DNA of 64,000 nucleotides from a virus. Taxonomy: Duplodnaviria; Caudoviricetes. Position numbers and translations under genes: made by a program. Of this stretch, positions 11,386 to 57,052 are shown in pieces (position 1 is the first letter of the stretch; each line of letters starts with the position of its first letter). The stretch lies in the IMG/VR virus record IMGVR_UViG_3300033407_000006, positions 1 through 64,000 of that record. One strand, 5' to 3'. A model generated the notes under the pieces. It ran no database searches. It was not told the DNA's origin and worked only from the letters and a program-made list of their open reading frames with translations.

Positions 11386-11558
11386 TGGTTTTGCTCCTTT
11401 TTCTTTGGTGGACGTTTTGCGCGGCCAACCCGCGCCACTTTACAAATCTCTTGCAGCCTACAACCCGGCGGCAAAACGGATAAACAGGCGCAAATGCAAA
11501 AGATTTCGGGCGTCTACGCGGAAAAGATCGCTGTTGCCTTCTTCTCTTCTTTTTTGTG

Positions 11559-11587
11559 TTGACATTTATACGGTGTGAGACTACTGT
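11559..11587 (+). promoter_or_regulatory. sigma70-type promoter of island 1 with palindromic operator over the -10
   Basis: TTGACA-17-TACTGT; GTGAGAC-N4-GTTTCAC; near-identical copy at 56955. Confidence 0.75.
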
Positions 11588-11593
11588 TTCACC

Positions 11594-11899
11594 ATGCGAG
11601 GCGGCAATTGGTGGGAAAGCCTACGGGCAAGTAACGCCGCGAGTTGGTGGCTCGTTAAAATCACCCGGTCTTGGGTTTCGCCAGCCCTCACCGTCACAAA
11701 CGCAGGCGCGTCGGGATGGCACGCACCCGCGAGATCCGGCAGGCAGCAGGGCCTTGACCCTGTTCCGTTCCCCCTGCCGAGAGCCTACCCGGCAAGGGGG
11801 AGAGCGGCCCCCTATGGTCCATTGTCGGCGGGTGCAATGGACAGGAGCCCCGGAAGAGGGGAATAGAGCCCGCACTTAACTTGCACTGGCAGGGGGAGC
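11594..11899 (+). ncRNA. Candidate structured 5' leader / cis-regulatory RNA
   Basis: About 300 nt with several hairpins (GTCCATTG/CAATGGAC, CAGGG/CCCTG) and an anti-SD alternative pairing. Confidence 0.4.
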
Positions 11900-20376: not shown

Positions 20377-20411
20377 ACCATAGCACCGGGAATTTATCAA
20401 CCCATTCATTA
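20377..20411 (-). promoter_or_regulatory. Conserved phage promoter motif, copy 1
   Basis: TAATGAATGGGTTGATAAATTC-N4-TG-C-TATGGT. Confidence 0.65.
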
Positions 20412-20908: not shown

Positions 20909-21559
20909 CTACTTGCTCCTTTCTTCTATGCCCGCAGCCAATGCGCGGGCCCGTTGTCTCTCGCCTTCTTCCAGCGCCCGCGCAAACGCGACAGCAGGGT
21001 GCAACTCTTCGTCGTCCGGCGTGTCCAGGTAGGTGCAAAACTCATCGATAAAGCGGCGGCTGACCGGCTCCTGCATCGCGGCCACGGCGCACATGAGCAC
21101 GGCGCGGAACCCGCCATTGAAGACGCTCCAGTTGACGTTGTAGACCGTGCGGCCCTTGTCGTCCTGGCGCTTCTCCACCTTCGCGCCCTCGCCGCCGATA
21201 CGGATCGCGTACTGCTGGCAGTCGGAGTGAAGGATCACGTTGTCCAGGTCCGAAAGGGCAAAGTACCAATCCAGTGCGTCATAGAAGTTGCTTTGGCCGC
21301 TGTCGCCTTCCTCTTCGAGCAGGTAGCGGGTGCCGTGGCGGGCGATATGATCAGTCCGCTCTTCGACGAGGACGGCGAACCCGGCGTCGCGCTTCTGTTT
21401 CACTTCGTCAATGAGGGGCTGCTTCCACGTCCCGAACATGCCGGTAATGGGGATCACGTCCGTCACCATGAGCTGTCCGGCGTCGTAGACGGCGTAGGCC
21501 TTGAACTTCTTCACGGACATCAGCGATACGGTCATGATTTTCAGGGTTTTTTCTGCCAC
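20909..21559 (-). CDS. Hypothetical protein
   Basis: 216 aa, phage-like codon usage. Confidence 0.75.
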   Translation of the reverse strand: MAEKTLKIMTVSLMSVKKFKAYAVYDAGQLMVTDVIPITGMFGTWKQPLIDEVKQKRDAGFAVLVEERTDHIARHGTRYLLEEEGDSGQSNFYDALDWYFALSDLDNVILHSDCQQYAIRIGGEGAKVEKRQDDKGRTVYNVNWSVFNGGFRAVLMCAVAAMQEPVSRRFIDEFCTYLDTPDDEELHPAVAFARALEEGERQRARALAAGIEERSK

Positions 21560-21595: not shown

Positions 21596-21617
21596 GGCGG
21601 GCTAAACTATGTTATAA
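21596..21617 (+). other. attI-like half site at head of cassette array A
   Basis: GGCGGGCTAAACTAT-GTTATAA; 20 bp identical to 36881-36900; no R''/L'' half. Confidence 0.6.
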
Positions 21618-21818
21618 GTCGCTCGTCAATTTGAAGTTGAACGGCCTCTCCGGGGTGTAGTGCTCGCGGATTGAGCGGTCACGCTCTCGCAGTTGCTCAA
21701 CGATCCAGGCCTCTGCGAACTTTTCCAGCGTCGGGTAAAAGGTTCGCGTTTTCGTGCTGTCGTTGCCGGTCACGATATAGCCGTTATCAATGCGCTCTAT
21801 CTGTACGTCAATTTCCAT
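21612..21818 (-). CDS. Cassette A1 hypothetical protein
   Basis: 68 aa; TAA stop formed by the GTTA box. Confidence 0.75.
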   Translation of the reverse strand: MEIDVQIERIDNGYIVTGNDSTKTRTFYPTLEKFAEAWIVEQLRERDRSIREHYTPERPFNFKLTSDL

Positions 21819-21839
21819 CAGTACCTCCGTTTAGGCGAC

Positions 21840-21942
21840 TCATAACCCGTCGCTGAAGACGACGCGCAATAGCTGTCGGGTTCGCGTTCGATTCAGTGGT
21901 GCGCCGTCGTCGGCGCGGCGCGTCTTACCTTTGTCGTTATGC
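21840..21942 (+). repeat. attC site A1 (103 bp)
   Basis: TCATAAC-5-GCT(G)AAGAC...GTCTTACC-6-GTTATGC. Confidence 0.8.
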
Positions 21943-22155
21943 GCCAGCATCACCATCCATCAGTCCACAACCAATGGCGCAATCTTCACAGTGAGGGTTT
22001 CCATCACCATCCACAATAGAGTCCTCTTCGCAGTGGCCTGTCGGCTCCTCACATTTGCTGCAAAGCTGCAAAGTTCCAGGGTAGTTATCTGCGTTCCAAT
22101 GGGCGTGCTCCTCTTGCGTCATTGCATGTCTGCGTCCGCCTGGCCATGTGTTCAT
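21937..22155 (-). CDS. Cassette A2 Cys-rich small protein
   Basis: 72 aa, CSKC/CEDC; stop in the R' box. Confidence 0.7.
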   Translation of the reverse strand: MNTWPGGRRHAMTQEEHAHWNADNYPGTLQLCSKCEEPTGHCEEDSIVDGDGNPHCEDCAIGCGLMDGDAGA

Positions 22156-22178
22156 GGTGTTTCTCCTGTCCGCAAGAT

Positions 22179-22197
22179 GTTTAGCTAATTGTTATGC
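22179..22197 (+). other. Degenerate attC / simple recombination site A2
   Basis: GTTTAGC-TAATT-GTTATGC; no matching TAAC or hairpin upstream. Confidence 0.45.
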
Positions 22198-22509
22198 GTA
22201 CAAACATTCACGCCCAGCCATCTCTGCGGAAATCCAGTCTCCATCCATCGCATTTCCATTGATGGCCTTCTCCAGTTGCCGCAGCGTGTCCCGCAAGGAT
22301 TTCTCTAAATCGTTTATCCGGTCTTGCTTTATGCTCACAGTACCCTTCAGCTTCACGTTCTCGTCCCGCAGGTCTTTCAGTTCTGCGGCTATCGTGTCCA
22401 AAAAACCAACTGGATCTGCACTTGCCAACAGATTACCGCCGCTTATCATGTCGGCGAGTCTTCCAAAAGCCGCGTCAATTCTCGCCAGTTTCCCTTTCAT
22501 GCTTCCCAT
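22192..22509 (-). CDS. Cassette A3 coiled-coil hypothetical protein
   Basis: RBS GGAGG before the ATG at 22509; stop in the R' box. Confidence 0.7.
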   Translation of the reverse strand: MGSMKGKLARIDAAFGRLADMISGGNLLASADPVGFLDTIAAELKDLRDENVKLKGTVSIKQDRINDLEKSLRDTLRQLEKAINGNAMDGDWISAEMAGRECLYA

Positions 22510-22526
22510 AGTTTCCTCCAAAATTC

Positions 22527-22592
22527 GCATAACCAGCGGGTCAACTCGGATTGCGCAAACTGCCGCGCAACCGGTTACCCTTGTCGTTATAA
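22527..22592 (+). repeat. attC site A3 (66 bp)
   Basis: GCATAAC-5-GGT(C)AAC...TTGCGC/GCGCAA...GTTACC-6-GTTATAA. Confidence 0.9.
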
Positions 22593-22778
22593 ATCTTTGT
22601 GCGAAAGAGTGGCGGCACGTACGTACTCGCTTGGAGTAATTCCTGCCACCACAGCTTTGCGCTCTACCTCATCCCACTCTTCAGCCGTCCAGCGGGTTTG
22701 CTTAACAACGTCCCGCACAGGTTTGCGGCTGGTCGATCCTTGCGGCCTGCCCCCGCCTCGCCATCCTCCTTTAGGCAT
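22587..22778 (-). CDS. Cassette A4 ribbon-helix-helix DNA-binding protein
   Basis: 'GGGRPQG...TRWTAEEWDEVERKA..AGITPSEYVR'. Confidence 0.7.
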   Translation of the reverse strand: MPKGGWRGGGRPQGSTSRKPVRDVVKQTRWTAEEWDEVERKAVVAGITPSEYVRAATLSHKDL

Positions 22779-23004
22779 GGTCGCCCTCCACAAATGAGCA
22801 TGGTGCATAATCAAGAGGATCTCCACCGAGCATCCCCGGCTTTATGTTCCATCCACAGCGCCAGGGGTCAATCATACTTGCCAGCTCCGAGCGCAGTGCG
22901 TTCTTTTGCAGGACAAAGCCGGTGAATCGCTGCCGGTATCTGCACCCCGCCGCACATTCGGGCGGGGTGCCGGTATTCGTTGGGTCTGCCGGTAGTGGCC
23001 TCAT
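22771..23004 (-). CDS. Cassette A4 small Cys-containing protein
   Basis: ATG overlaps upstream stop (ATGA); coupled to RHH gene. Confidence 0.5.
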   Translation of the reverse strand: MRPLPADPTNTGTPPECAAGCRYRQRFTGFVLQKNALRSELASMIDPWRCGWNIKPGMLGGDPLDYAPCSFVEGDHA

Positions 23005-23189
23005 ACCCACCCCCCAGTTTCTGGGTCATATGCTTGGCGGCCACAAAAAACCGGATCAGGGCTGTGCGAAACGCGCACCAACGAAGCAGCACCAACAAGA
23101 CGGGCAGACTCGAAGCGCAGGTACGCGAGGCCAGCAAGCGGGGTGGAATCAGCGAGGGTGCCATTGATGTGAATTTCATAAGTTTCCAT
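23001..23189 (-). CDS. Cassette A4 small protein
   Basis: 62 aa, RBS AGGAG, behind a strong promoter. Confidence 0.65.
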   Translation of the reverse strand: METYEIHINGTLADSTPLAGLAYLRFESARLVGAASLVRVSHSPDPVFCGRQAYDPETGGWV

Positions 23190-23209
23190 GTTTGTTCTCC
23201 TATGTCGTT

Positions 23210-23249
23210 AAGTTGATTTAAATATATTTCAACTTTGTTTTCTTGTCAA
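23210..23249 (-). promoter_or_regulatory. Internal sigma70 promoter and operator of cassette A4
   Basis: TTGACA-17-TATATT; palindrome AAGTTGA-N12-TCAACTT (23210-23235). Confidence 0.75.
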
Positions 23250-23301
23250 TACAAAAAAACAACTAAACTATTAATTTGCCACGGAAGAGACGCCCAAAGA
23301 T

Positions 23302-23359
23302 TTATAACAAGTCAATCAACCGGATTCGCTACGCTCTCCGGTTATTTCAGTCGTTAGAT
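23302..23359 (+). repeat. attC site A4 (58 bp)
   Basis: TTATAAC-5-AAT(C)AACCGGA...TCCGGTTATT-6-GTTAGAT. Confidence 0.9.
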
Positions 23360-23376
23360 TCTAAATCTGCGCAAAA

Positions 23377-24171
23377 TCAGACAAAGCACATGCCGCTCGA
23401 ACAGTATCCGCCCGCATCGAATAGGGTCGGTTCTGCGGTAAAGTCCACCTGGTCCAGCGGTGTGCATGATCGGTGCAGCCAGGCGCACGGGTCGAACGCC
23501 TGCATTTCCCTCTCGAACGCCACCGCTTGAGCAAATTCGTCCGGTGCGTTCTCCTTCAGGTCTTTCCATTCGTCGTCGGCTTGGTTCGGGCACATCCAGC
23601 AACGCGACCTGGGCGGCTTCGGCCACCCCATCTTCTCGACTTCGCGGATTCCGTGGTGCCTCTTCATCGGCACATCGTGAATCATCGGAAACCGGATAAG
23701 CCCTTTTTCCCATTCCGGCCCCGCCATCATTCGCAAAGCCCGGCGCGTTTCGTCCATGCTGAATCCGATCCACATTTTCACCTTTGAGCGGGTCAAACCG
23801 AATGTCTTGCTCAAAAAACTCTGAATGACTCGGTTTTTCCATTTGCTTGAACAAAACCCCGGCATCTTGCCGACGTTCCCGGTCTCGTCTGTCCATGTTG
23901 GCAAAATCATGGTCTTCCCGCTCGGGTCAAGCCAGTTCGGATCTTTTGCATAATGACCGCCCCACTCATCGCAGCACACACGATGAATTTCTACCCCTAC
24001 CCCTGCCAGTGCAGGCAACGTAACGGCGTTAAGGTATTGCCACGTTGTCCCGCATTCCCGACCAGTGTCGGCAATCACCGCAAGATCCGGCTTCGGCAGC
24101 TTTCCTTGAATTATCAGCGAAGCGATACAGTTGCTTTGCGTCCCGCCTCCGCTGCTAAAAACCTCAACCAT
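23377..24171 (-). CDS. Cassette A5 PAPS-reductase-like (adenine nucleotide alpha hydrolase) protein
   Basis: 'FSSGGGTQS...ADTGRE...PRSRCWMCPNQ'. Confidence 0.8.
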   Translation of the reverse strand: MVEVFSSGGGTQSNCIASLIIQGKLPKPDLAVIADTGRECGTTWQYLNAVTLPALAGVGVEIHRVCCDEWGGHYAKDPNWLDPSGKTMILPTWTDETGNVGKMPGFCSSKWKNRVIQSFLSKTFGLTRSKVKMWIGFSMDETRRALRMMAGPEWEKGLIRFPMIHDVPMKRHHGIREVEKMGWPKPPRSRCWMCPNQADDEWKDLKENAPDEFAQAVAFEREMQAFDPCAWLHRSCTPLDQVDFTAEPTLFDAGGYCSSGMCFV

Positions 24172-24210
24172 TTAACCCCCTATCGGGCTGCGCCCGAGCG
24201 CAGATTTAGA

Positions 24211-24268
24211 ACCTAACCCAGCGGTGAAGCGGATTCGCTCCGCTCTCCGCTTACCTCAATCGTTACCT
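24211..24268 (+). repeat. attC site A5 (58 bp, last of array A)
   Basis: ACCTAAC-5-GGT(G)AAGCGGA...TCCGCTTACC-6-GTTACCT. Confidence 0.9.
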
Positions 24269-24766: not shown

Positions 24767-24801
24767 AGTATCGCAAAAGGAATTTATCAACCCATTCACT
24801 A
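24767..24801 (-). promoter_or_regulatory. Conserved phage promoter motif, copy 2 (upstream of array A)
   Basis: TAGTGAATGGGTTGATAAATTC-N4-TG-C-GATACT. Confidence 0.65.
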
Positions 24802-24802
24802 T

Positions 24803-27283
24803 TCAATCGTTCCCTGCCAAAATCTTTTTGGCCCGCTCCAGCGCCTCGTTTCTCTCCCGGTCGCTGGCCTCTTCAACCGGCGTGTAATCGACCAAGTAGA
24901 AGAAGCAAACGGTATCGAAAAGGTCCGGGGATTTGATGCCCTGCGAGGCCATTTGATCCTTGGGAAGGATGGAGTAGCGGCCCTTTTCGTCCATCTTGTA
25001 AGGGATTTTGCTGCCCTGCTCCACGATCTTCTTGTTGCGGGGGATATGAATGCGCTGCTGCCTTAAGGCCTCCCTGGCCTGATACGAGGCGTAGGCCCGC
25101 AGGTTCTTGTATCGGCGCTTGTCGGTCTCCGAAAACGGCGGAAGGCCCCAATGGATTGTTTCGCACGGAACGCCCAGCTCTTCGAGCGTCAGGATGACGG
25201 TGCGACCCGGCCCGTCGCCGTCGATTGCAACGGTGATGTTGGGGAAGTCTTGAACCCGCTGATAGATCTCTCGGGCAAAGGCCAATTCGTCCTTGTCCAG
25301 GTATTCGACCGTCTCCACGATATCGACCTTGCGATCCGGGCCGTAGCCGCTCACTTTGGCGATGGACCAAACGGACGAATCCCGGAACTTCCCTTCAGCA
25401 ACGTCTGCGGTCAGAATCCAGCCCCAGGCCTCTTTGTGCTCAATCTGATTGGTCTGCGCATCCTCAAGCCATGATTTCGGAATGAGAAAGCCGCTCATGT
25501 TGTCGGGTAGCCGCCCCAGAACCTTGATCTGGTACTCAGGGCTGTGGTGCCCGCCGTACTCAATCAGCTTCATTTCGATGAATTCGCGGGTGACAAGCGG
25601 ACTTTCTTCGGAGTTGAGATTCAACGTCTTGTAAAGACTGGAGTTTTGCCCCCACGCGTCGGCAAAGTGACCGTTTGCCCGCGTCGGCTGCGAGACCATG
25701 ATATATCGGTTTCCGGCTTGGGTCAGGGCGCCGCGCAAAACGCCGTGAATGACATCATCCACGCCCGAGGCCTCATCCACCACGCACAGGTAATTTTCGT
25801 TGTGCTGGCCCGCCAGTGATTCCGGCTTGGACTTCGAGGCGGTACGGGGGATGACGTACCACGAATCTTTCCAGTGCTTGTTGAAGTACCGCTTTGTTTC
25901 CTTGACGAAGTGGCCCCGCTGGTAAGGGTTGATAGCCTCCACGTCGGCGATGACCTCATCCATGTACTTCCATACGCCCGTGCGGCACTGGTCGATGCTG
26001 TTTGCGGTCAATAGGGCGTTGCTCAAGGGGTAAACGCGAAGATGCCAATCGAAGAGCCAAGCGAGCAGAAAGGTCTTGCCGGTATTATGAAGAACGGTGA
26101 AGTCTCCACCAAGAAATTTGCTGTTTCCGTCGAGGATGAAGCCGTAATAGTCACCTTCGCCTAGTGGAGCGCAGCTTCTTATCCCGAAATTAAGGTTGGG
26201 CCGGTTCTTGTTTCTATCTATCGGTTTCCTTCTTTCTACTCGGACAGGTATCTTGTCGATATTTCTGCCTATGTTGATCCGCCAATAATCTCCCACCGCT
26301 CCGGTGTTGCAGCATTTTTTTCGAGTCTTATTAACTGTAGCATGACAACCAATCGATTTAGCCAGCCACACAATATCTCTTGCGAATCTTTCGCTCTTTT
26401 GAACAACGTCGAATGCTGTGCCCGCGCTTGCTAAAAACCCATCAGTATCAATAATGCCAGCCAAAAGCTCTAGCCTGTCTTGGTATGGCGCAAGCAAGTA
26501 TTTTTTAGGTATGTGCAGTTCATCTGTTAAACCATGTGCTCGAAGAGTTTCGATGAATGGATTGGCCCTCCCTTTTCCTATCCCAATGTGCCACATCCTG
26601 GCTTTGCCGCTCGCCCCCCAATAGGTAAGCCTGTAGCCCTTAGAAACTGCATACCGGCCCCATGCCTCGCTTACTTCTCTATCTGGTGTCGTTATCGTTG
26701 GCGTGTGAATATGTCCATCTCCTAGCCAGAGTCCGAGTATATATGCCGGGATCGGTAGCTCTTCGGGCTCCCAGCCGAAATCATTTACACTCGCCCTGTA
26801 GACAGCATGGCAACGCTTTCTATCGGCTCCCCATTGCAGCCAATCCCTAACCGTCACCTCAGTTTTCTCTCCAGACTCTCTGCGGCCTTTTGAGTTTGTT
26901 GCGACAAGGCAAAGGATATGACTTTCGTTGAAGACGTGGCTAGACCCGTCGTTGTAGGTGAAGCGATACAGCGCCTCCCGGCCACGTTTTAGCGCCAAGA
27001 CGTTTCGCGGCGTACCGTCATCGCCCATAAGGATGTCGCCCACATTCACGCTCTCAACCGGCTTTATCTCGCCGCTATGCAGCATGATTTCGGTTCCAAG
27101 GCCGAAGCAGCCGTGCCCGGACGCTACCGCAACCTGGGCCCCGTGCTCCTGCGCCAAGCGAATGAAATCCTCCTGCTGCCAGGACATCCGCTGTCGACAA
27201 TGGTGATCGACGTAATCCATGAGGTTGTTACGGTAGCGGGCGCAGAAATCGATGTAATCGGGATTGGAAAAGAGGGTGCTCAT
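24803..27283 (-). CDS. pacB: Terminase large subunit with intein
   Basis: Split Walker A 'ASGHG/TGKT', Walker B 'VVDEASGV', RuvC-like 'TADVAEG'; 484 aa after splicing. Confidence 0.92.
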   Translation of the reverse strand: MSTLFSNPDYIDFCARYRNNLMDYVDHHCRQRMSWQQEDFIRLAQEHGAQVAVASGHGCFGLGTEIMLHSGEIKPVESVNVGDILMGDDGTPRNVLALKRGREALYRFTYNDGSSHVFNESHILCLVATNSKGRRESGEKTEVTVRDWLQWGADRKRCHAVYRASVNDFGWEPEELPIPAYILGLWLGDGHIHTPTITTPDREVSEAWGRYAVSKGYRLTYWGASGKARMWHIGIGKGRANPFIETLRAHGLTDELHIPKKYLLAPYQDRLELLAGIIDTDGFLASAGTAFDVVQKSERFARDIVWLAKSIGCHATVNKTRKKCCNTGAVGDYWRINIGRNIDKIPVRVERRKPIDRNKNRPNLNFGIRSCAPLGEGDYYGFILDGNSKFLGGDFTVLHNTGKTFLLAWLFDWHLRVYPLSNALLTANSIDQCRTGVWKYMDEVIADVEAINPYQRGHFVKETKRYFNKHWKDSWYVIPRTASKSKPESLAGQHNENYLCVVDEASGVDDVIHGVLRGALTQAGNRYIMVSQPTRANGHFADAWGQNSSLYKTLNLNSEESPLVTREFIEMKLIEYGGHHSPEYQIKVLGRLPDNMSGFLIPKSWLEDAQTNQIEHKEAWGWILTADVAEGKFRDSSVWSIAKVSGYGPDRKVDIVETVEYLDKDELAFAREIYQRVQDFPNITVAIDGDGPGRTVILTLEELGVPCETIHWGLPPFSETDKRRYKNLRAYASYQAREALRQQRIHIPRNKKIVEQGSKIPYKMDEKGRYSILPKDQMASQGIKSPDLFDTVCFFYLVDYTPVEEASDRERNEALERAKKILAGND
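26084..27109 (-). mobile_element. Intein (342 aa) with LAGLIDADG homing endonuclease
   Basis: Starts CFGLGTEIML, ends VLHN before Thr; 'LGLWLGDG' and 'LAGIIDTDG'; lower GC. Confidence 0.93.
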
Positions 27284-27567
27284 AGATGCAGCCAAGGCTT
27301 TGCGGCGATATCGGGGATCAACTCCAGAAGCTCCCCTTCGGTTGCGATTGAAGCCTCGAACGATTCTCTTCCGGCATGGACGGCAACGCCCCGGCCCCCT
27401 TGCCGGTGATGTGCCGGGCAAAGGGGGATTCTCGGGGCGTTGCCGCGCTTTGAGCCACCGCGCCGGATATGGTGAATTTCAGCCGGTGACGTGCCGTAGC
27501 CGAGGCGGTGACAGGCCATGCAGCCGAACGAGGCGAGTTGCGAATCGGTGAAGTCTGTGTCGGTCAT
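27280..27567 (-). CDS. ref: Ref-like RecA-dependent HNH nuclease
   Basis: 'GCMAC...EIHH...IPLCPAHHR...VH'. Confidence 0.7.
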   Translation of the reverse strand: MTDTDFTDSQLASFGCMACHRLGYGTSPAEIHHIRRGGSKRGNAPRIPLCPAHHRQGGRGVAVHAGRESFEASIATEGELLELIPDIAAKPWLHL

Positions 27568-30171: not shown

Positions 30172-30206
30172 ACCTTAACATTGTGAATTTATCAACCCAC
30201 TCACTA
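30172..30206 (-). promoter_or_regulatory. Conserved phage promoter motif, copy 3
   Basis: TAGTGAGTGGGTTGATAAATTC-N4-TG-T-TAAGGT. Confidence 0.65.
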
Positions 30207-33351: not shown

Positions 33352-33735
33352 TCAGTGGATTGTCTTCGATTGTGGCACATTGAATTTGTCATCCCATTCA
33401 CTAAAATCGTGGTCCCTCGACAAATCTGCGCCGCGATTGATGCCGAAGTGCTCCGACGAATGGTATTTGCCGCGCCCGAGGAAAAAGCCGTTGAGCCCCT
33501 GGGTCTGGAGCTTGCGGAAAAACGTGGGGTAGGGCACGTCCATCAACTCCGCAGCCTTGCGGCGGGAATAGCCCTGTTGGGCGAGTTCCTGAACGGCGTC
33601 TTTATCCAGCAGCCGGGAAGCCTCCAAGCACTCGCGGGAACAATAGCGCTGGTGCATCCGGCTTTCGGTGACGTGGAATTTCTGCCTGCATCGCTCGTTC
33701 TCGCACTCAACGGCGTACCTTGTGTGTCTACGCAT
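33352..33735 (-). CDS. Zn/HTH hypothetical protein
   Basis: 'YCSREC', 'GYSRRKAAELMDVPYPTF'. Confidence 0.6.
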   Translation of the reverse strand: MRRHTRYAVECENERCRQKFHVTESRMHQRYCSRECLEASRLLDKDAVQELAQQGYSRRKAAELMDVPYPTFFRKLQTQGLNGFFLGRGKYHSSEHFGINRGADLSRDHDFSEWDDKFNVPQSKTIH

Positions 33736-36880: not shown

Positions 36881-36902
36881 GGCGGGCTAAACTATGTTAT
36901 GC
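36881..36902 (+). other. attI-like half site at head of cassette array B
   Basis: GGCGGGCTAAACTAT-GTTATGC. Confidence 0.6.
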
Positions 36903-37133
36903 CTTAAAGCCGTACGATTTACGGCCCCTCCCAAAAGGTCCGGCATTTATCCTCTCCTCCCCTGCTCGCGCTGTCCACTTCGCCTTCCAAATTTTCTTCC
37001 CAGGCTCGGTATCTTGTGTTCCCTCAATGACATCCCCACCCCAAGCTTTTTCGATAGCCTCGGCTTCGGTGGCTGCCTCAACGCAACACATTGTTTGGGT
37101 GCTTTCGTAGCCTTCCACGTAAAAAATAGGCAT
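36897..37133 (-). CDS. Cassette B1 hypothetical protein
   Basis: ATG inside the R'' box, SD (AAGGA) inside attC B1, stop in the R' box. Confidence 0.7.
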   Translation of the reverse strand: MPIFYVEGYESTQTMCCVEAATEAEAIEKAWGGDVIEGTQDTEPGKKIWKAKWTARAGEERINAGPFGRGRKSYGFKA

Positions 37134-37187
37134 AACCAATCCTTTCAGCGGACTCGCTCCGCTCGCGGCTGAAGTCAGTTGTTAGGC
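37130..37187 (+). repeat. attC site B1 (58 bp)
   Basis: GCATAAC-5-CTT(T)CAGC...GCTGAAG-6-GTTAGGC. Confidence 0.85.
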
Positions 37188-37510
37188 AGCCCCAACAGTT
37201 GCCGAGCCGCCGCAATGTCGGCAGCGGTCACGCCGGTCGGCACGCTCTTGTACTCAAGGTCGCGCTTCAAGCCGTCCCATGCTTTGTGTAGCGCCATCAC
37301 GCCTTCATGGTGTTCTTGGCTCAGGTAGCAGCAGCCAGGCGCCGAGAAACCCCCTCCGTCAGCCACCAGCGTTTCGAGATCAATCCGCTCGCGGTTGTCG
37401 AGTTGAGCCCACTTGCGGCCGACCTTCGTCACTGTCACTTCTCGTGGCAGCGCGTGCCGCTGGCTTTGCGGCACCCACCAAAGTATTTGCCCTTCCGTCA
37501 GTTTTTCCAT
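37175..37510 (-). CDS. Cassette B2 hypothetical protein
   Basis: 111 aa, 'VTVTKVGRKWA' phage family motif. Confidence 0.75.
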   Translation of the reverse strand: MEKLTEGQILWWVPQSQRHALPREVTVTKVGRKWAQLDNRERIDLETLVADGGGFSAPGCCYLSQEHHEGVMALHKAWDGLKRDLEYKSVPTGVTAADIAAARQLLGLPNN

Positions 37511-37521
37511 TCTCCGATCCC

Positions 37522-37613
37522 TTCTAACTTATCGTTGCAGGCGACCGCCGAACAGCCGCCTATAGCTTCCTCTTGCGCTCCTGCGCGGCGTCGCCTGAAC
37601 TCAGACGTTATCT
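37522..37613 (+). repeat. attC site B2 (92 bp)
   Basis: TTCTAAC-5-GTT(G)CAGGCGAC...GTCGCCTGAAC-6-GTTATCT. Confidence 0.88.
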
Positions 37614-37811
37614 GCTCAGTGCCTCACCGATAGCGGTTACCAAATTACTTTGATCTTGGCTTTTGCACTCAATGTGTGGCAGCGCATCGGTCAGCATTTT
37701 TCTAAGGGTTTCGTTTTCTTCCCTCAACTCATCCGAGCAGGCCCGCGACATCCGCAGGTGCATTTCAATGTCGGTGATTTTGTCTACTAACTCTCTTTCT
37801 CGTTTGTCCAC
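37608..37811 (-). CDS. Cassette B3 coiled-coil small protein
   Basis: GGAGG-6-GTG; stop in the R' box. Confidence 0.65.
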   Translation of the reverse strand: MDKRERELVDKITDIEMHLRMSRACSDELREENETLRKMLTDALPHIECKSQDQSNLVTAIGEALSR

Positions 37812-37824
37812 TTTTGACCTCCGC

Positions 37825-37889
37825 AGATAACCAATCGTTGCAAGCGGACTCGGCAAACTGCGCCGAGCCCTTGACCTCAGTCGTTATGC
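37825..37889 (+). repeat. attC site B3 (65 bp)
   Basis: AGATAAC-5-GTT(G)CAAG...CTCGGC/GCCGAG...CTTGACC-6-GTTATGC. Confidence 0.88.
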
Positions 37890-38152
37890 AACTCGTCACC
37901 GCCCCACGGCGCTCCCGACTCCCGCAACGCCAACTTGAGCGGCAGAAGCGTGCATACATCACCGTCGGCCAGGTGGCCGTTTGCGTCGAGCGTCTGGCAA
38001 ATTGCGGCGCGCAGCCTTTCAACTTCCGCCGAAAGAATCTCGGCAATATCCACACTGCCGTAACCGCTGCCGGTCATGTCGTCATCTTCGTCGGTCGGCC
38101 CGGCTATCTCGTAGCAAAGGCGCCTCGCCAAATCTATGCTGCCTCGTTTCAT
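37877..38152 (-). CDS. Cassette B4 hypothetical protein
   Basis: 91 aa, RBS GGAGG. Confidence 0.65.
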   Translation of the reverse strand: MKRGSIDLARRLCYEIAGPTDEDDDMTGSGYGSVDIAEILSAEVERLRAAICQTLDANGHLADGDVCTLLPLKLALRESGAPWGGDELHND

Positions 38153-38167
38153 TTCTCAACCTCCGTT

Positions 38168-38235
38168 GCATAACCCGGCAGTCCACCTGACCTGCCGCAT
38201 AAAGCCGCGTCAGTCAGGTGACTTTTGCGTTAGGG
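38168..38235 (+). repeat. attC site B4 (68 bp)
   Basis: GCATAAC-5-AGT(C)CACCTGAC...GTCAGGTGACT-5-GTTAGGG. Confidence 0.9.
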
Positions 38236-38424
38236 TGCTTCGGGGCGGCTCTGTTTTGCGTACAGCTCCAGCCACGCAAAAGCCAAACCCGGCGGGCGTC
38301 TCCCGCTCGGCCCGTCATCTTCCCAACTCTGCCAAGTGCGGTACGGTGTCCCCGTCAACCTGGCCGCTTCTGCCATAGAGAGACCCGACTTCTGCCGGGT
38401 CTCTCTCAGTTCCTTGGCAGTCAC
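38230..38424 (-). CDS. Cassette B5 XRE HTH protein
   Basis: 'ELRETRQKSGLSMAEAARLTGTPYRTWQSWE'; GTGA overlap with upstream gene. Confidence 0.75.
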   Translation of the reverse strand: MTAKELRETRQKSGLSMAEAARLTGTPYRTWQSWEDDGPSGRRPPGLAFAWLELYAKQSRPEAP

Positions 38425-38657
38425 TGGTTGCCATCCGGACGGACGATTTCTGCCCCTTCCTCGACAAGACGGGAGCAAAGGTCAATACACTCCTGACTTC
38501 CTACTCCATAGCCAATTTTTCCGCGCAGTTCGTCGGGGACAGGACAGGCCGCGACCCCTTCGTCACTCATTGGATCGCCGTCGTAACTTTTGACCTGTTC
38601 CGCATTCGCCGGCCAGCAGAATTGTCCGTCATTCATTACTACGTATTTGCTTTTCAT
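38421..38657 (-). CDS. Cassette B5 small protein
   Basis: 78 aa, RBS AAGGAG, behind a strong promoter. Confidence 0.7.
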   Translation of the reverse strand: MKSKYVVMNDGQFCWPANAEQVKSYDGDPMSDEGVAACPVPDELRGKIGYGVGSQECIDLCSRLVEEGAEIVRPDGNQ

Positions 38658-38706
38658 GGCTGTACTCCTTCTGGTTTGGGTTATTTGTTCCGCTTTCTTG
38701 ATTCTA

Positions 38707-38756
38707 ATTATATGCACATTGTGACTGATTGCAAGTAAAATAATTCACTTTGTGCA
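38707..38756 (-). promoter_or_regulatory. Internal sigma70 promoter and operators of cassette B5
   Basis: TTGCAA-16-TATAAT; inverted pair TGCACATTGTGA / TCACTTTGTGCA. Confidence 0.75.
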
Positions 38757-38781
38757 TTTTTATTTGAGCGGCGCAAAATCA

Positions 38782-38850
38782 CCCTAACCAGTCGGTCAAT
38801 CGGACCGTCGCGAAAGTGCCGCGCCGATCCGCTTACCTTTATCGTTAGTT
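38782..38850 (+). repeat. attC site B5 (69 bp)
   Basis: CCCTAAC-5-GGT(C)AATCGGA...TCCGCTTACC-6-GTTAGTT. Confidence 0.88.
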
Positions 38851-39096
38851 TGCTTGTGGCACTTCCAGCGGCCCGTACCACTTCCCACCGATCTTATTGA
38901 CACGCTCGCGGTAGCCGGTAAGCGGGCGGCACCCAACAAAACCACACGCGGCTTTAATGACTTGGTAAATTTCTACGCTGTTCGCCCTTCCTCCGCCGTC
39001 ATCGTTCCAATAAAAACCTTCGGCGGTCGGTTCCTCTTTCGACCAGCGCAAACTAACACCAGTTTCGAGCGGACGGTTTTCACTTTCCGTTTCCAT
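38845..39096 (-). CDS. Cassette B6 hypothetical protein; RBS and first 15 codons lie inside attC B6
   Basis: GGAGGAGG and ATG in the attC loop; stop in the R' box. Confidence 0.7.
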   Translation of the reverse strand: METESENRPLETGVSLRWSKEEPTAEGFYWNDDGGGRANSVEIYQVIKAACGFVGCRPLTGYRERVNKIGGKWYGPLEVPQAN

Positions 39097-39136
39097 GGGT
39101 TGCGGCCTCCTCCGCCGCTCAAACTAAACGTTAGGC
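39051..39136 (+). repeat. attC site B6 (86 bp, last of array B)
   Basis: AACTAAC-5-TTT(C)GAGCGG...CCGCTCAAA-6-GTTAGGC. Confidence 0.85.
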
Positions 39137-43609: not shown

Positions 43610-44839
43610 CTATTCCGTCACGCCGAACTCTTCGGCTCTCGCTTTGACTGCTGCCCCGAAACCCTCGGGGTTTGTGCGCACTTCCTCGCGGATCTTGTTC
43701 GCCAGCGCCCTGAGTTGGTCCAGGGGAAGATCCGAGACGGAAACGCCGTCGGTTTCGTCCAGCGCCGCCCATGCGACGAGCTGCTGATAGCTGACACCGA
43801 TATGCTTTGCAGCTCCGGTCATGTAGCTGTGAATTCTGGCCCTTGCCTCTTCTTCCGTGGGCCCTGTGTCAGAAAGGCGTTCCTTTGGTGCAGGCTCGGC
43901 TTCCTTGACGGCGGGCTTCGCGTTGAAGACCTTGGCGGCTTTCTGCCCTCGCTCGGCGCGGCCTTCGGCGTACCGGGCCAGCTCCATGGCATCGATGGAC
44001 AGCTCCAACAGCGGAATCCACTGAGTCTGTTTTTTCCCCTCGGGCGTCGTGACCTCTTCGGGGCTCTTGACGATCTCCAGGTATGATTCGCCGCCAAGCA
44101 GCCCGTCGAACCGCCCGAGAATGGACCGGATGCGGCGCAGCAACGCCACGCTGTAGCTGAAGCCGTACCAGCTCTTCGAGGGGATCATGATTTCGTCCAG
44201 GCCTCGCAGCCCGGCGACGTGGAAACGGTAGATGCCGCCGAACTGCATGACGCGGCCCGTGGGGTCCACCGGCTTTTCAGGGTTGAGCGGCGCAACCTTC
44301 CAATCGTCCTTGGTCGCACGTCCCTTGTGGCCCTTGGGCAGGTAGCGCACCATGAGCTTCGATCCCTCGTAGAAACTCGCGGCTTGAACGCTGCCGCTGC
44401 CGTCGAAGGCCTTGAATCCGTGATGCAGGGCCTTTTCCAGCTCCCCGACGGACAACCAGACGGGAATGCGCCGAACATGCCCGTCCGGGTCGGCATAGTT
44501 TCCCCGAATGAACTGAGCATCGGCGGGCCGCGTGAAATCGCAATCCCGAATCACGAAATGATCCGCGTTCTTCGGGTAAAGCTTCGATGTCCGCGTCTTG
44601 GGCGCTCCCCCCAGGGCCCGGTCGATCTCGTCGTAGGGCATGCCCTGGGCTTCCAGTTCCTTGAACTTGGCGAGTTCCTGGGTACTGAGGCCCTGCTTCG
44701 GCACCTTGACGCCCGTGCGGATGATCCCCCCGCAACGAACGCGGTCCTTGTGGCCCAGGAGAAGCGCGACTTCCTCTTCATCGCCTCCTTCGATGGCGTA
44801 TGCCATGGCCGTGTTGTGGTCCAAATTTTCTTCCATCAT
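43610..44839 (-). CDS. Recombination-associated protein (Gp3-like/annealing family, tentative)
   Basis: 'GGIIRTGVK...PKNADHFV'; upstream of sbcDC. Confidence 0.5.
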   Translation of the reverse strand: MMEENLDHNTAMAYAIEGGDEEEVALLLGHKDRVRCGGIIRTGVKVPKQGLSTQELAKFKELEAQGMPYDEIDRALGGAPKTRTSKLYPKNADHFVIRDCDFTRPADAQFIRGNYADPDGHVRRIPVWLSVGELEKALHHGFKAFDGSGSVQAASFYEGSKLMVRYLPKGHKGRATKDDWKVAPLNPEKPVDPTGRVMQFGGIYRFHVAGLRGLDEIMIPSKSWYGFSYSVALLRRIRSILGRFDGLLGGESYLEIVKSPEEVTTPEGKKQTQWIPLLELSIDAMELARYAEGRAERGQKAAKVFNAKPAVKEAEPAPKERLSDTGPTEEEARARIHSYMTGAAKHIGVSYQQLVAWAALDETDGVSVSDLPLDQLRALANKIREEVRTNPEGFGAAVKARAEEFGVTE

Positions 44840-45497: not shown

Positions 45498-45833
45498 ATG
45501 TCGGATGTTTTGGCCGTTATCGACCGGATGAAGCGAGCCCTTGGCGTTGATACGGACTCGCAAATGCTCGAAACCCTTAAACTTTCTTCCGGGGCTGCGG
45601 CTCAGTGGAAAAAGAGGGGGAAAGTCCCGAGGCCTTACGTCCAGCTCGTCAGCGAGCGCACAGGCTACCGAGAGCAATGGATCGAAACAGGTAGCGGCGA
45701 GGTCCGGTTTGAGCGCAAAAAAAGGGCGCTGGATTCGCTGCCGAAGGGGCGGGCCACCAACGCTTGCGCCATGATGTTTAAAAGGTTTAAGGGCCGGACG
45801 AAAAGCCTAAGACGAAACACGGATTACCACTAA
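45498..45833 (+). CDS. cI: CI-like repressor (HTH domain only)
   Basis: 'IDRMKRALGV.TD....L..S...QWKKRGKVP...WIETGSG' Phage_CI_repr pattern; no S24 peptidase domain. Confidence 0.75.
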   Translation: MSDVLAVIDRMKRALGVDTDSQMLETLKLSSGAAAQWKKRGKVPRPYVQLVSERTGYREQWIETGSGEVRFERKKRALDSLPKGRATNACAMMFKRFKGRTKSLRRNTDYH

Positions 45834-45892
45834 GGTAAGAGTCGCAAGACATTAACCATTGATTCGTAAGTGAAAATCAGCTCGATTCGTTT

Positions 45893-45938
45893 ACTGAAAA
45901 TCCTCGTGTCGGCGGTTCGATTCCGTCTCTGGGCACCA
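45893..45938 (+). tRNA. 3' fragment of tRNA-Phe(GAA), anticodon loop to CCA (att core, not a full tRNA)
   Basis: ACTGAAAATCCTCGTGTCGGCGGTTCGATTCCGTCTCTGGGCACCA; D-arm and 5' acceptor strand absent. Confidence 0.85.
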
Positions 45939-45943
45939 AAAAC

Positions 45944-45978
45944 AAAGGGATTCCGGCCGCTTGTCGGAATCCCTTTTT
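45944..45978. terminator. Intrinsic terminator after the att core
   Basis: AAAGGGATTCCG-9-CGGAATCCCTTTTT. Confidence 0.85.
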
Positions 45979-46015
45979 CTTCGCCCTCGCCTATGGCTTA
46001 CCACGGCTTACCACT

Positions 46016-46549
46016 TCAGCCGATGCGCTGATACAGGTCGATTACCGGCTGATCCGCCGTCACCAACTGGTTCGGAAAGGCCTTGCTCGAAAGCGTGTAG
46101 CAGCCGCCGCGCACCACGTCGAACGTGGCGACTCCGCCAGCGTCCGTCGTCACCTCGAATTTGCCGGGATGCAGCACGGACGCCGCCGCCAGGGTCGGAT
46201 GGTCCTGGAGCGTCACGGCGATCTTGACCCCGGCAGCCGGGGCACCGCTGATGTGCCGCACCGTGACGGTCAAGGTCGAAAGATCCGGGTCCGCCGGGGC
46301 TGGAACGATCCCCCTCGAATCTCCTTCGACCTCCACGGCACCGACGACGCGCACGAACGACAGCCAGGAGTATTGAGCCGGGTCGGCGGCGGCTTCGGCG
46401 AGGATTTTTTTTCCCGCGCCGTCATCTGGCAGGGCATCAACGTCGGTGTCCGTGCCGACAATAGATCGTGCGCCGTCCGCCGTGGCGCTTTGCCGCAGCC
46501 GGACGAACAGCCCGGCCTCTGCCGGGGGAGTGAATTTGAACGTGAGCAT
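46016..46549 (-). CDS. Virion-associated protein with Ig/prealbumin-like C-terminal domain
   Basis: 'GAPAAGVKIAVT...TTDAGGVATFDV'. Confidence 0.55.
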   Translation of the reverse strand: MLTFKFTPPAEAGLFVRLRQSATADGARSIVGTDTDVDALPDDGAGKKILAEAAADPAQYSWLSFVRVVGAVEVEGDSRGIVPAPADPDLSTLTVTVRHISGAPAAGVKIAVTLQDHPTLAAASVLHPGKFEVTTDAGGVATFDVVRGGCYTLSSKAFPNQLVTADQPVIDLYQRIG

Positions 46550-56823: not shown

Positions 56824-56954
56824 GTTGCCCCCGCTTTTCGGATTCTGCAACAGCATAGGAGAGGGACAAGGGTAGATAAACAAGCGCAAGGCGATTGAAA
56901 ACATTGCGCTTTCCCGGCTACGGCCCCGGTTTCTCTTCTTGTATCTTTTTTGTG

Positions 56955-56983
56955 TTGACAGATATAGGATGTGAGACTAGAGT
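56955..56983 (+). promoter_or_regulatory. sigma70-type promoter of island 2 (copy of 11559)
   Basis: TTGACA-17-TAGAGT; GTGAGAC-N4-GTTTCAC. Confidence 0.75.
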
Positions 56984-57052
56984 TTCACCATGAAAGGCGG
57001 CGCGGGGCTGCCGGGGCGGACAAGCCGACTCAGGGAGAGGGAGGAAATAGTC

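Follow-up and report, generated by a model that had tools for sequence, protein, structure and literature searches.

Probable integron attC clusters with cassettes of reversed polarity in the genome of a tailed phage

The stretch of DNA analyzed here (hereafter, the window) comprises positions 1 to 64,000 of the IMG/VR virus record IMGVR_UViG_3300033407_000006 and carries two arrays of integron-type attC sites: array A at positions 21596-24268 and array B at positions 36881-39136, both with their sites on the + strand. Most probably, these arrays are genuine clusters of integron attC sites lacking an integrase (CALIN) in a tailed phage, served by an integron integrase (IntI) in trans and holding cassettes of reversed polarity, in which the open reading frames (ORFs) lie on the attC bottom strand. 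Integrons are generally viewed as bacterial devices, with phages as occasional carriers. CALINs in phages have already been published: Qi et al. (2023, PMC9892861) reported 17 of these arrays in 10,705 phage genomes, a figure that agrees with the original prediction that attC arrays are seldom described in phages; the unexpected feature here is the reversed polarity.

Architecture and homology of the attC sites

Array A consists of four complete attC sites, one degenerate site and one 20-nt head site. The G residues of its GTT cores are located at positions 21611 (head site), 21936, 22191 (degenerate site), 22586, 23353 and 24262, and the units from G to G measure 325, 255, 395, 767 and 909 bp. 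The original prediction had proposed five cassettes of these sizes, separated by four complete sites and one degenerate site, and all of its coordinates and sizes held when measured by the spacing of the GTT cores. The sites that it named are present, but it had omitted the head site, array B with its six attC sites, and the location of the ORFs on the minus strand.

On the + strand, each complete site opens with TAAC and a spacer of 5 nt; these are followed by an L'' arm of 7 nt in which the base at position 4 is unpaired, a stem-loop of variable length and sequence, the L' arm of 6 nt, a second spacer, also of 6 nt, and finally GTTA. All ten complete sites of arrays A and B start with TAAC and end with GTTA, and their lengths range from 58 to 103 nt. 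The extrahelical base of the L'' arm was also visible as a bulge in single-strand folds, and the window sites conform to attC as described in the literature, where extrahelical bases are located near L'' (PMC5027507). The claim that this is the established attC architecture is thus correct for the sequence and structure of the sites, but not for the genes, which are on the strand opposite to the canonical one.

In array A, attC A1 (21840-21942, +; 103 nt) has a long central stem-loop between TAAC and GTTA; its fold comprises an R stem and inner stems, and the L box has one mismatch. It is followed by the degenerate site (about 22176-22197, +), which retains only an L'-like arm, the spacer and the R' core; an R''/L'' arm is not present upstream of the R' core at 22191. 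The remaining sites are A2 (22527-22592, +), A3 (23302-23359, +) and A4 (24211-24268, +), the last site of the array. Array B begins with its head site (36881-36900), and its six attC sites B1 to B6 follow in order at 37130-37187, 37522-37613, 37825-37889, 38168-38235, 38782-38850 and 39051-39136 (+). Site B2 has a long central part and shares its end architecture and cognate ends with the other sites.

Because regular-expression and stem scanners were either too loose or too strict, we used a covariance model. This surrogate model (R1) was built from 34 bacterial attC sites, some of them beside integron integrases, and is distinct from the model of IntegronFinder; it was run with filters off on both strands of the 64 kb, and the E-values of such a home-made model are rough. 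R1 yielded eight matches at E <= 0.04, corresponding to 8 of the 10 complete sites, and all of them were on the + strand and within the two arrays, as a check by covariance model had been expected to show if the original prediction was right. The scores were 22.3 bits (E 7e-4) for A2, 55.3 bits for A3 and 56.8 bits for A4, for example, compared with 11.9 bits (E 1.4) for the best background match and about 10 bits for the array sites read on the minus strand. Independent support comes from five of the matches, because the remaining three (24211, 23302 and 37130) share the loop motif that was used for fishing related sites. A1 and B2 escaped detection because of their long central parts. As a positive control, R1 found exactly the three attC sites (3/3) of the CALIN of Tetrasphaera phage TJE1.

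We scanned the loop motif common to A3, A4 and B1 against one genome per species for 185,579 prokaryotic species. The motif recurred as tandem arrays, with sites about 500 bp apart, in metagenome-assembled genomes of Thermoanaerobaculia and other environmental bacteria, always within the TAAC ... GTTA frame. The genomes of these motif-bearing arrays encode integron integrases (TIGR02249, 463, 458 and 302 bits against a cut-off of 265), and we therefore regard the arrays as bona fide integrons; in two cases intI was on the same contig, directly beside the array. Judged by their sequences, the window sites are homologues of the attC sites beside bacterial integron integrases. A3 was also about 89% identical, in a hand alignment, to an attC of an integrase-bearing phage (G010).

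Covariation was computed for 92 sites from the window and from phage contigs, using an alignment that was fitted to the model and is thus biased towards structure. Paired cells amounted to 83.7%, compared with 70.8% in shuffles and 24-39% when the partner column was slid, and two-sided changes were found in 228 cells compared with 81 in shuffles. The L-box pairs covaried strongly, and one of them appeared as UA 28, AU 21, CG 20 and GC 18 times. The outer three R-box pairs were often unpaired, as expected because the distal half of R' belongs to the neighboring cassette within arrays. In every sequence and structure feature of attC that we tested, the sites agree with attC.

Cassette boundaries and the insertion site

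A unit starts with the TT of its left GTT core, ends with the G of its right one and would once have been a circle closed on a single attC. If this is the case, the sequence following the left GTT and the sequence preceding the next AAC should be reverse complements of each other. Such cognate complementarity was found in 9 of 10 cassettes, with either 8-14 nt perfect or 12-20 nt with one mismatch, whereas the maximum among non-cognate end pairs (n = 119) was 7 nt. For example, the ends of cassette 4 were perfectly complementary over 14 nt, those of cassette 5 matched at 19 of 20 positions, and the left R' and right R'' of cassette 1 were complementary at 11 of 12 positions. Read from the sequence, these cognate ends are what a circle leaves behind when it has been closed through one attC and then cut open between G and TT. 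Recombination of the sites at this position by an integron integrase would account for them.

The boundaries also coincided with those of a mosaic between phages. Cassette 3 recurs in an IMG/VR contig (L030:5700-6260) that represents an otherwise unrelated phage fragment, in which a gene for a gpA-type large terminase adjoins the shared cassette; the proteins are 87.6% identical and the DNA is about 82% identical. The homology runs from the left GTT core to the right GTT core, and the flanks are unrelated. At the position equivalent to the degenerate site of array A, the contig has a complete attC. In the contig behind this locus (G013:C1:11899-12060), we observed a 99-aa frame that matches only the C-terminal end of IntI (90 bits) and may be an intI remnant.

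Array A lies between two genes on the minus strand. Just beyond its head site is a conserved gene for a 216-aa protein (20909-21559, phrog_1837), whose start is 38 nt from the head site, the latter being upstream; on the other side is a gene for an 872-aa protein (24803-27421) with an intein (Hint and LAGLIDADG domains, about residues 105-370). A direct search of IMG/VR found no close relatives of the 216-aa protein, and an alignment-based search led to 14 distant related phages, with flanking proteins 46-66% identical. In these relatives, matches of about 430-500 aa to the C-terminal part of the 872-aa protein (24803-26296) abut the homologue of the 216-aa protein, directly upstream of it; the two homologues mostly abut or are 15-300 bp apart, and a few relatives have unrelated small genes at this junction, as insertions of up to about 870 bp. 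No attC match was found in the 14 related phages (245 kb). Because the flanks abut or lie near each other in these relatives, which have no attC there, array A and two adjoining small ORFs appear as a 3.2-kb lineage-specific insertion into a conserved junction. The G+C content at array A was 0.52-0.55, compared with about 0.60. The comparison with other phages that had been proposed as a check therefore turned out in favor of the original prediction, both for the breaks of cassette 3 homology at the GTT cores and for the relatives lacking attC at the junction.

These boundaries bear on two explanations that do not involve integrons. The hairpins could be regulatory or structural elements of the phage, such as terminators, RNA-processing sites or packaging signals, that resemble attC by convergence. 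They are indeed intergenic hairpins within a long operon, and attC sites have themselves been suggested to act as weak terminators, in work cited by Qi et al. (PMC9892861). However, the loop and arms are homologous in sequence to bacterial attC sites adjacent to IntI, no T run follows the stems, and a search of Rfam at the gathering threshold gave no match. Moreover, this explanation does not provide for cognate ends across 200-900 bp or for a shared cassette broken at the GTT cores, and we consider it highly improbable. Alternatively, a transposase or nuclease could have moved the repeats, either as miniature transposable elements or as selfish DNA of the homing type, in view of the terminal inverted repeats on each unit and of the LAGLIDADG intein, a homing-type element, in the neighboring gene. 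Yet the inverted repeats flank genes rather than hairpins, target-site duplications are absent, and three features point to integrons in particular, namely the conserved AAC/GTT cores, the bulge in the L box and the association with IntI genes, both in bacterial arrays and in four phage contigs; this origin seems to us even less credible than the preceding one.

Gene polarity and the source of the integrase

The orientation of the attC sites is unambiguous because the loop of this family is not palindromic. The + strand of the window is equivalent to the strand on which the bacterial arrays carry their genes; this is the attC top strand, which is defined by the extra base on the L'' arm (PMC5027507). 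Since the longest ORF per cassette was too noisy a criterion in GC-rich DNA, we called the polarity of genes between adjacent attC sites using a codon model and the ribosome-binding site, identically for all sets; the calls are our own. In the window, none of the genes was on the attC top strand and nine were on the opposite strand. The same held for 36 IMG/VR phage contigs sharing the loop motif (1 on the same strand and 73 on the opposite strand), in contrast to the bacterial arrays (60 and 12, respectively). Many of the 36 contigs are clearly from phages, since terminases, primases and a polyvalent protein are encoded no more than a few kb away from their attC sites, and in two of the 36 (L004 and L032) the attC sites change strand at the point where the genes do.

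All window cassette ORFs supported by a protein family (NikA-like, ProQ_C-like, HTH_31 and phrog_424) are on the minus strand. A canonical cassette has a promoterless ORF upstream of attC on the top strand, whereas nine of nine cassette genes here were on the bottom strand. Read along the coding strand, a unit consists of attC in its bottom-strand form, a ribosome-binding site, the ORF and the stop codon, and in 8 of about 12 ORFs the stop is a TAA from the R' core, just before the crossover point. Our literature search found no paper describing reversed polarity or phage integrons of such a layout.

We compared this layout with four known systems. The array of TJE1, in which two of the three attC sites were shown to recombine with IntI1 (Qi et al. 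2023, PMC9892861), is likewise an attC array in a phage without IntI, with small phage-type cargo, and R1 detects both; however, the ORFs of TJE1 precede attC on the same strand, whereas those of the window are all on the bottom strand, and the ten sites of the window phage are divided between two arrays whose head sites are identical. A CALIN starting with an attI site has also been found in the Shewanella prophage M16-3 (PMC9892861). The sedentary chromosomal integrons of Thermoanaerobaculia and other Acidobacteriota, Planctomycetota and others have the same attC family and the same bulge and spacer geometry, but theirs have IntI adjacent and genes on the attC top strand (60 versus 12). In G001, the one bacterial array that we mapped, intI points toward the array, which we take to be the so-called inverted-integrase layout.

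The third system is formed by complete integrons of phages. Among the 36 phage contigs with sites of this attC family, 4 encoded full IntI (372-401 bits), namely those behind loci L014, L010, L023 and L027, in which the sites have the same reversed polarity and the cassettes lie among packaging or replication genes. They differ from the window phage, which has head sites only, in having a full-length IntI and, in three of four, an attI-like site and array near the 5' end of intI. One of them, G010, is a 43-kb genome with terminal repeats; in G010, G023 and G033, the array starts near the 5' end of intI, the attC top strands point away from this gene, as in classical integrons, and the cassette ORFs are co-oriented with it. 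In G010, the first cassette begins at a GTT core about 30 nt from the start of intI, and complementarity at its far end is perfect over 10 nt.

Finally, inverted cassettes in Vibrio cholerae, described by Richard et al. in 2024, reportedly have genes running against the attC top strand from their own promoter and form a minority among canonical cassettes. Cassette 4 (22587-23353) and the helix-turn-helix cassette of array B look similar, but the window cassettes are all inverted and most are without their own promoter. The cassettes in question are inverted toxin-antitoxin cassettes of the V. cholerae superintegron (Richard et al. 2024, PMC13108822).

Because the phage is without an integrase, it carries a CALIN and not a complete integron: the arrays have four and six sites, with spacings of 213-909 bp, and the genome contains no intI. 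By the definition attributed to Cury et al. (2016), a CALIN has two or more attC sites separated by less than 4 kb and lacks an intI in its vicinity. Head site A (21596-21615, +; 20 nt) ends in the first GTT core and has no hairpin partner, and an identical 20-mer heads array B (36881-36900), 15 kb away; these were the only two copies in the genome and in the loci fetched. Relative to the attC top strands, both occupy the position of attI. The head site shares a 6-nt G-rich block, a 9-nt spacing and a GTTAT core with the attI-like site beside intI of G023, and it presumably resembles the attI1 simple site.

These observations suggest that IntI in trans, from the host or from a co-resident phage, would insert cassettes at the head sites and exchange them between attC sites. 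Acting on the folded bottom strand, the enzyme would use the head site as a landing pad for insertion and the attC sites for excision and exchange; its source could be a chromosomal integron of the host or a co-infecting or resident phage that encodes IntI. The cassettes would come from a phage-adapted pool of reversed polarity, with the ORF on the attC bottom strand, and would be expressed by read-through of the leftward phage operon rather than from an integron promoter.

Several results weigh against this interpretation. No tyrosine recombinase or IntI remnant was found in the 74.9-kb genome with PF00589 and TIGR02249, even at E 1 to 10, and a search of the phage genome for a serine recombinase as an alternative enzyme was also negative; activity therefore depends on a partner, as in any CALIN needing IntI in trans. 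One site of array A is degenerate and the cognate ends of the cassette from B1 to B2 in array B cover only 5 nt, so that some decay has occurred. The thermodynamic z-scores of single sites were modest (-1.2 to -3.4, including -2.8 for A2 and -3.2 for A4, and one of 0.1). With regard to the head site, its likeness to the attI of G023 is limited to the block, spacing and core mentioned above, and its 19-mer had no match in IMG/VR; its 18-mer had four matches in metagenome contigs, which we rejected as chance matches in unrelated coding DNA. As for polarity, the ratio of 1 to 73 applies to one attC family rather than to all phages, the contigs having been picked via one loop motif. In addition, TJE1 is canonical, with an attC downstream of each ORF on the same strand; it follows that not all phages have the reversed polarity and that the model does not produce it as an artefact.

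Part of this evidence could also indicate fossil arrays, built elsewhere, for example in an IntI-encoding phage, brought in en bloc by phage recombination and now fixed with inactive attC sites. The lack of an integrase in the genome, the degenerate site and the cassette with mismatched cognate ends are all consistent with such an origin, as are the relatives that carry ordinary small genes without attC at the same junction and the non-cassette homologue of an array B gene in an ordinary operon of another phage (locus L195, described below). However, ten sites retain the full architecture and nine cassettes retain long cognate ends, whereas decay would be expected without selection or recent recombination. 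Moreover, an identical 20-mer at the head of two arrays 15 kb apart is easier to reconcile with a functional landing site than with two en-bloc transfers. We accordingly rate fossil arrays as unlikely, though well ahead of regulatory hairpins or transposable elements, and prefer arrays that would still be served by IntI in trans.

With respect to the reason for the reversed polarity, we can offer a guess. Phage genes are co-oriented, and intI would keep its divergent position relative to the attC top strands. If intI is both co-oriented with the operon and divergent from the attC top strands, the cassette genes would be forced onto the bottom strand, and integrase-less phages using the same cassette pool would have to orient their landing site likewise. 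A second idea, which does not exclude the first, is that the bottom strand would be the non-template strand and, if replication is co-directional with transcription, also the template of the lagging strand; such exposure would favor hairpin extrusion during a short infection.

In the window, attC sites thus organize accessory genes inside the phage's own operon with the opposite polarity, and the same layout is found in dozens of phage contigs. We lean slightly towards a broader view, according to which many environmental phages keep their own reversed-polarity integron system, some of them with an IntI gene co-oriented with the cassettes, while integrase-less ones keep only an attI-like pad, here two, and borrow IntI; phages would thereby trade genes via a pool separate from the bacterial one. 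The genes traded possibly include counter-defence genes. If the sites are active, they would allow unrelated phages to exchange small accessory genes in a site-specific manner; this would amount to a phage pool parallel to the cassettes of bacterial integrons, which are now known to store anti-phage defences. The reversed polarity also puts the recombinogenic strand on the coding strand and so provides a natural experiment on the control of attC folding by strand choice, transcription and replication. From a practical viewpoint, annotation tools that expect an ORF followed by attC will pair the window ORFs with the wrong attC.

Cargo and genomic surroundings

As stated in the original prediction, the cargo is of phage type, mostly small proteins without a family match, and no likeness to resistance genes was found among the array cargo. 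All cassette ORFs of array A are on the minus strand. Cassette 1 (21612-21936, 325 bp) contains an ORF at 21612-21818 (68 aa, no family match), whose stop codon is the TAA made by the R' core, and attC A1. Cassette 2 (21937-22191, 255 bp) contains an ORF at 21937-22155 (72 aa, no known family) and ends at the degenerate site, and cassette 3 (22192-22586, 395 bp) contains an ORF at 22192-22509 (105 aa, coiled-coil-like) and attC A2. Cassette 4 (22587-23353, 767 bp) is a two-gene unit with attC A3, in which a 62-aa ORF (23001-23189) is paired with a gene for a 79-aa NikA-like ribbon-helix-helix protein (22587-22826; Pfam PF21983, 2.7e-8); both genes are downstream of an AT-rich, promoter-like stretch at 23190-23300. 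Cassette 5 (23354-24262, 909 bp) contains attC A4 and an ORF at 23377-24171, which encodes a 264-aa PAPS-reductase-like protein (phrog_424, 3.9e-27).

Array B holds six cassettes with minus-strand ORFs, including those for ProQ_C-like and HTH_31 proteins. One ORF (38845-39096) starts within the loop of attC B6 (39051-39136), such that the recombination site itself supplies the ribosome-binding site as well as the initial residues of the protein. In a related phage (L195:4700-4870), a homologue of the array B gene at 37877-38152 (67% identity over 55 aa) is located in an ordinary operon of overlapping genes, without attC-like flanks. Cassette genes and ordinary phage accessory genes therefore overlap.

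The source record of the window is 74,876 bp long and has direct terminal repeats; both of its ends share a sequence of about 94 nt (30-123 and 74779-74872 of the full record), which fits the repeats reported by IMG/VR. The genome has the gene set of a tailed phage, including SSB, a small terminase, a T4-type portal protein, an SbcCD-like pair, RdgC, a DNA methylase and a tail-fibre domain, and nearly all of the genes are on the minus strand. A Megablast comparison of 20 kb of the window with 50,697 phage records gave no match, and ARAGORN found no tRNA in the window. A candidate tRNA-Phe attP at 45821-46014 gave only a weak hairpin-like match in a permissive Rfam scan of 45700-46100, in which a half tRNA is easily missed.

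Three further features of the window were observed. A 408-aa protein (43610-44836, -) weakly matches (29.8 bits) a Gp3-like recombination-directionality-factor domain, in a genome without an integrase. A 29-nt intergenic motif occurs in four copies (20383-20411, 24773-24801, 30178-30206 and 33375-33403; 79-100% alike) that precede groups of minus-strand genes, and it may be a promoter or regulator site of the phage; one copy is located between the intein gene and the two small ORFs adjoining array A. A 58-nt repeat (11548-11605 and 56944-57001; 86% identical) contains a TTGACA-type promoter-like box, and both copies are located where the direction of the genes switches.

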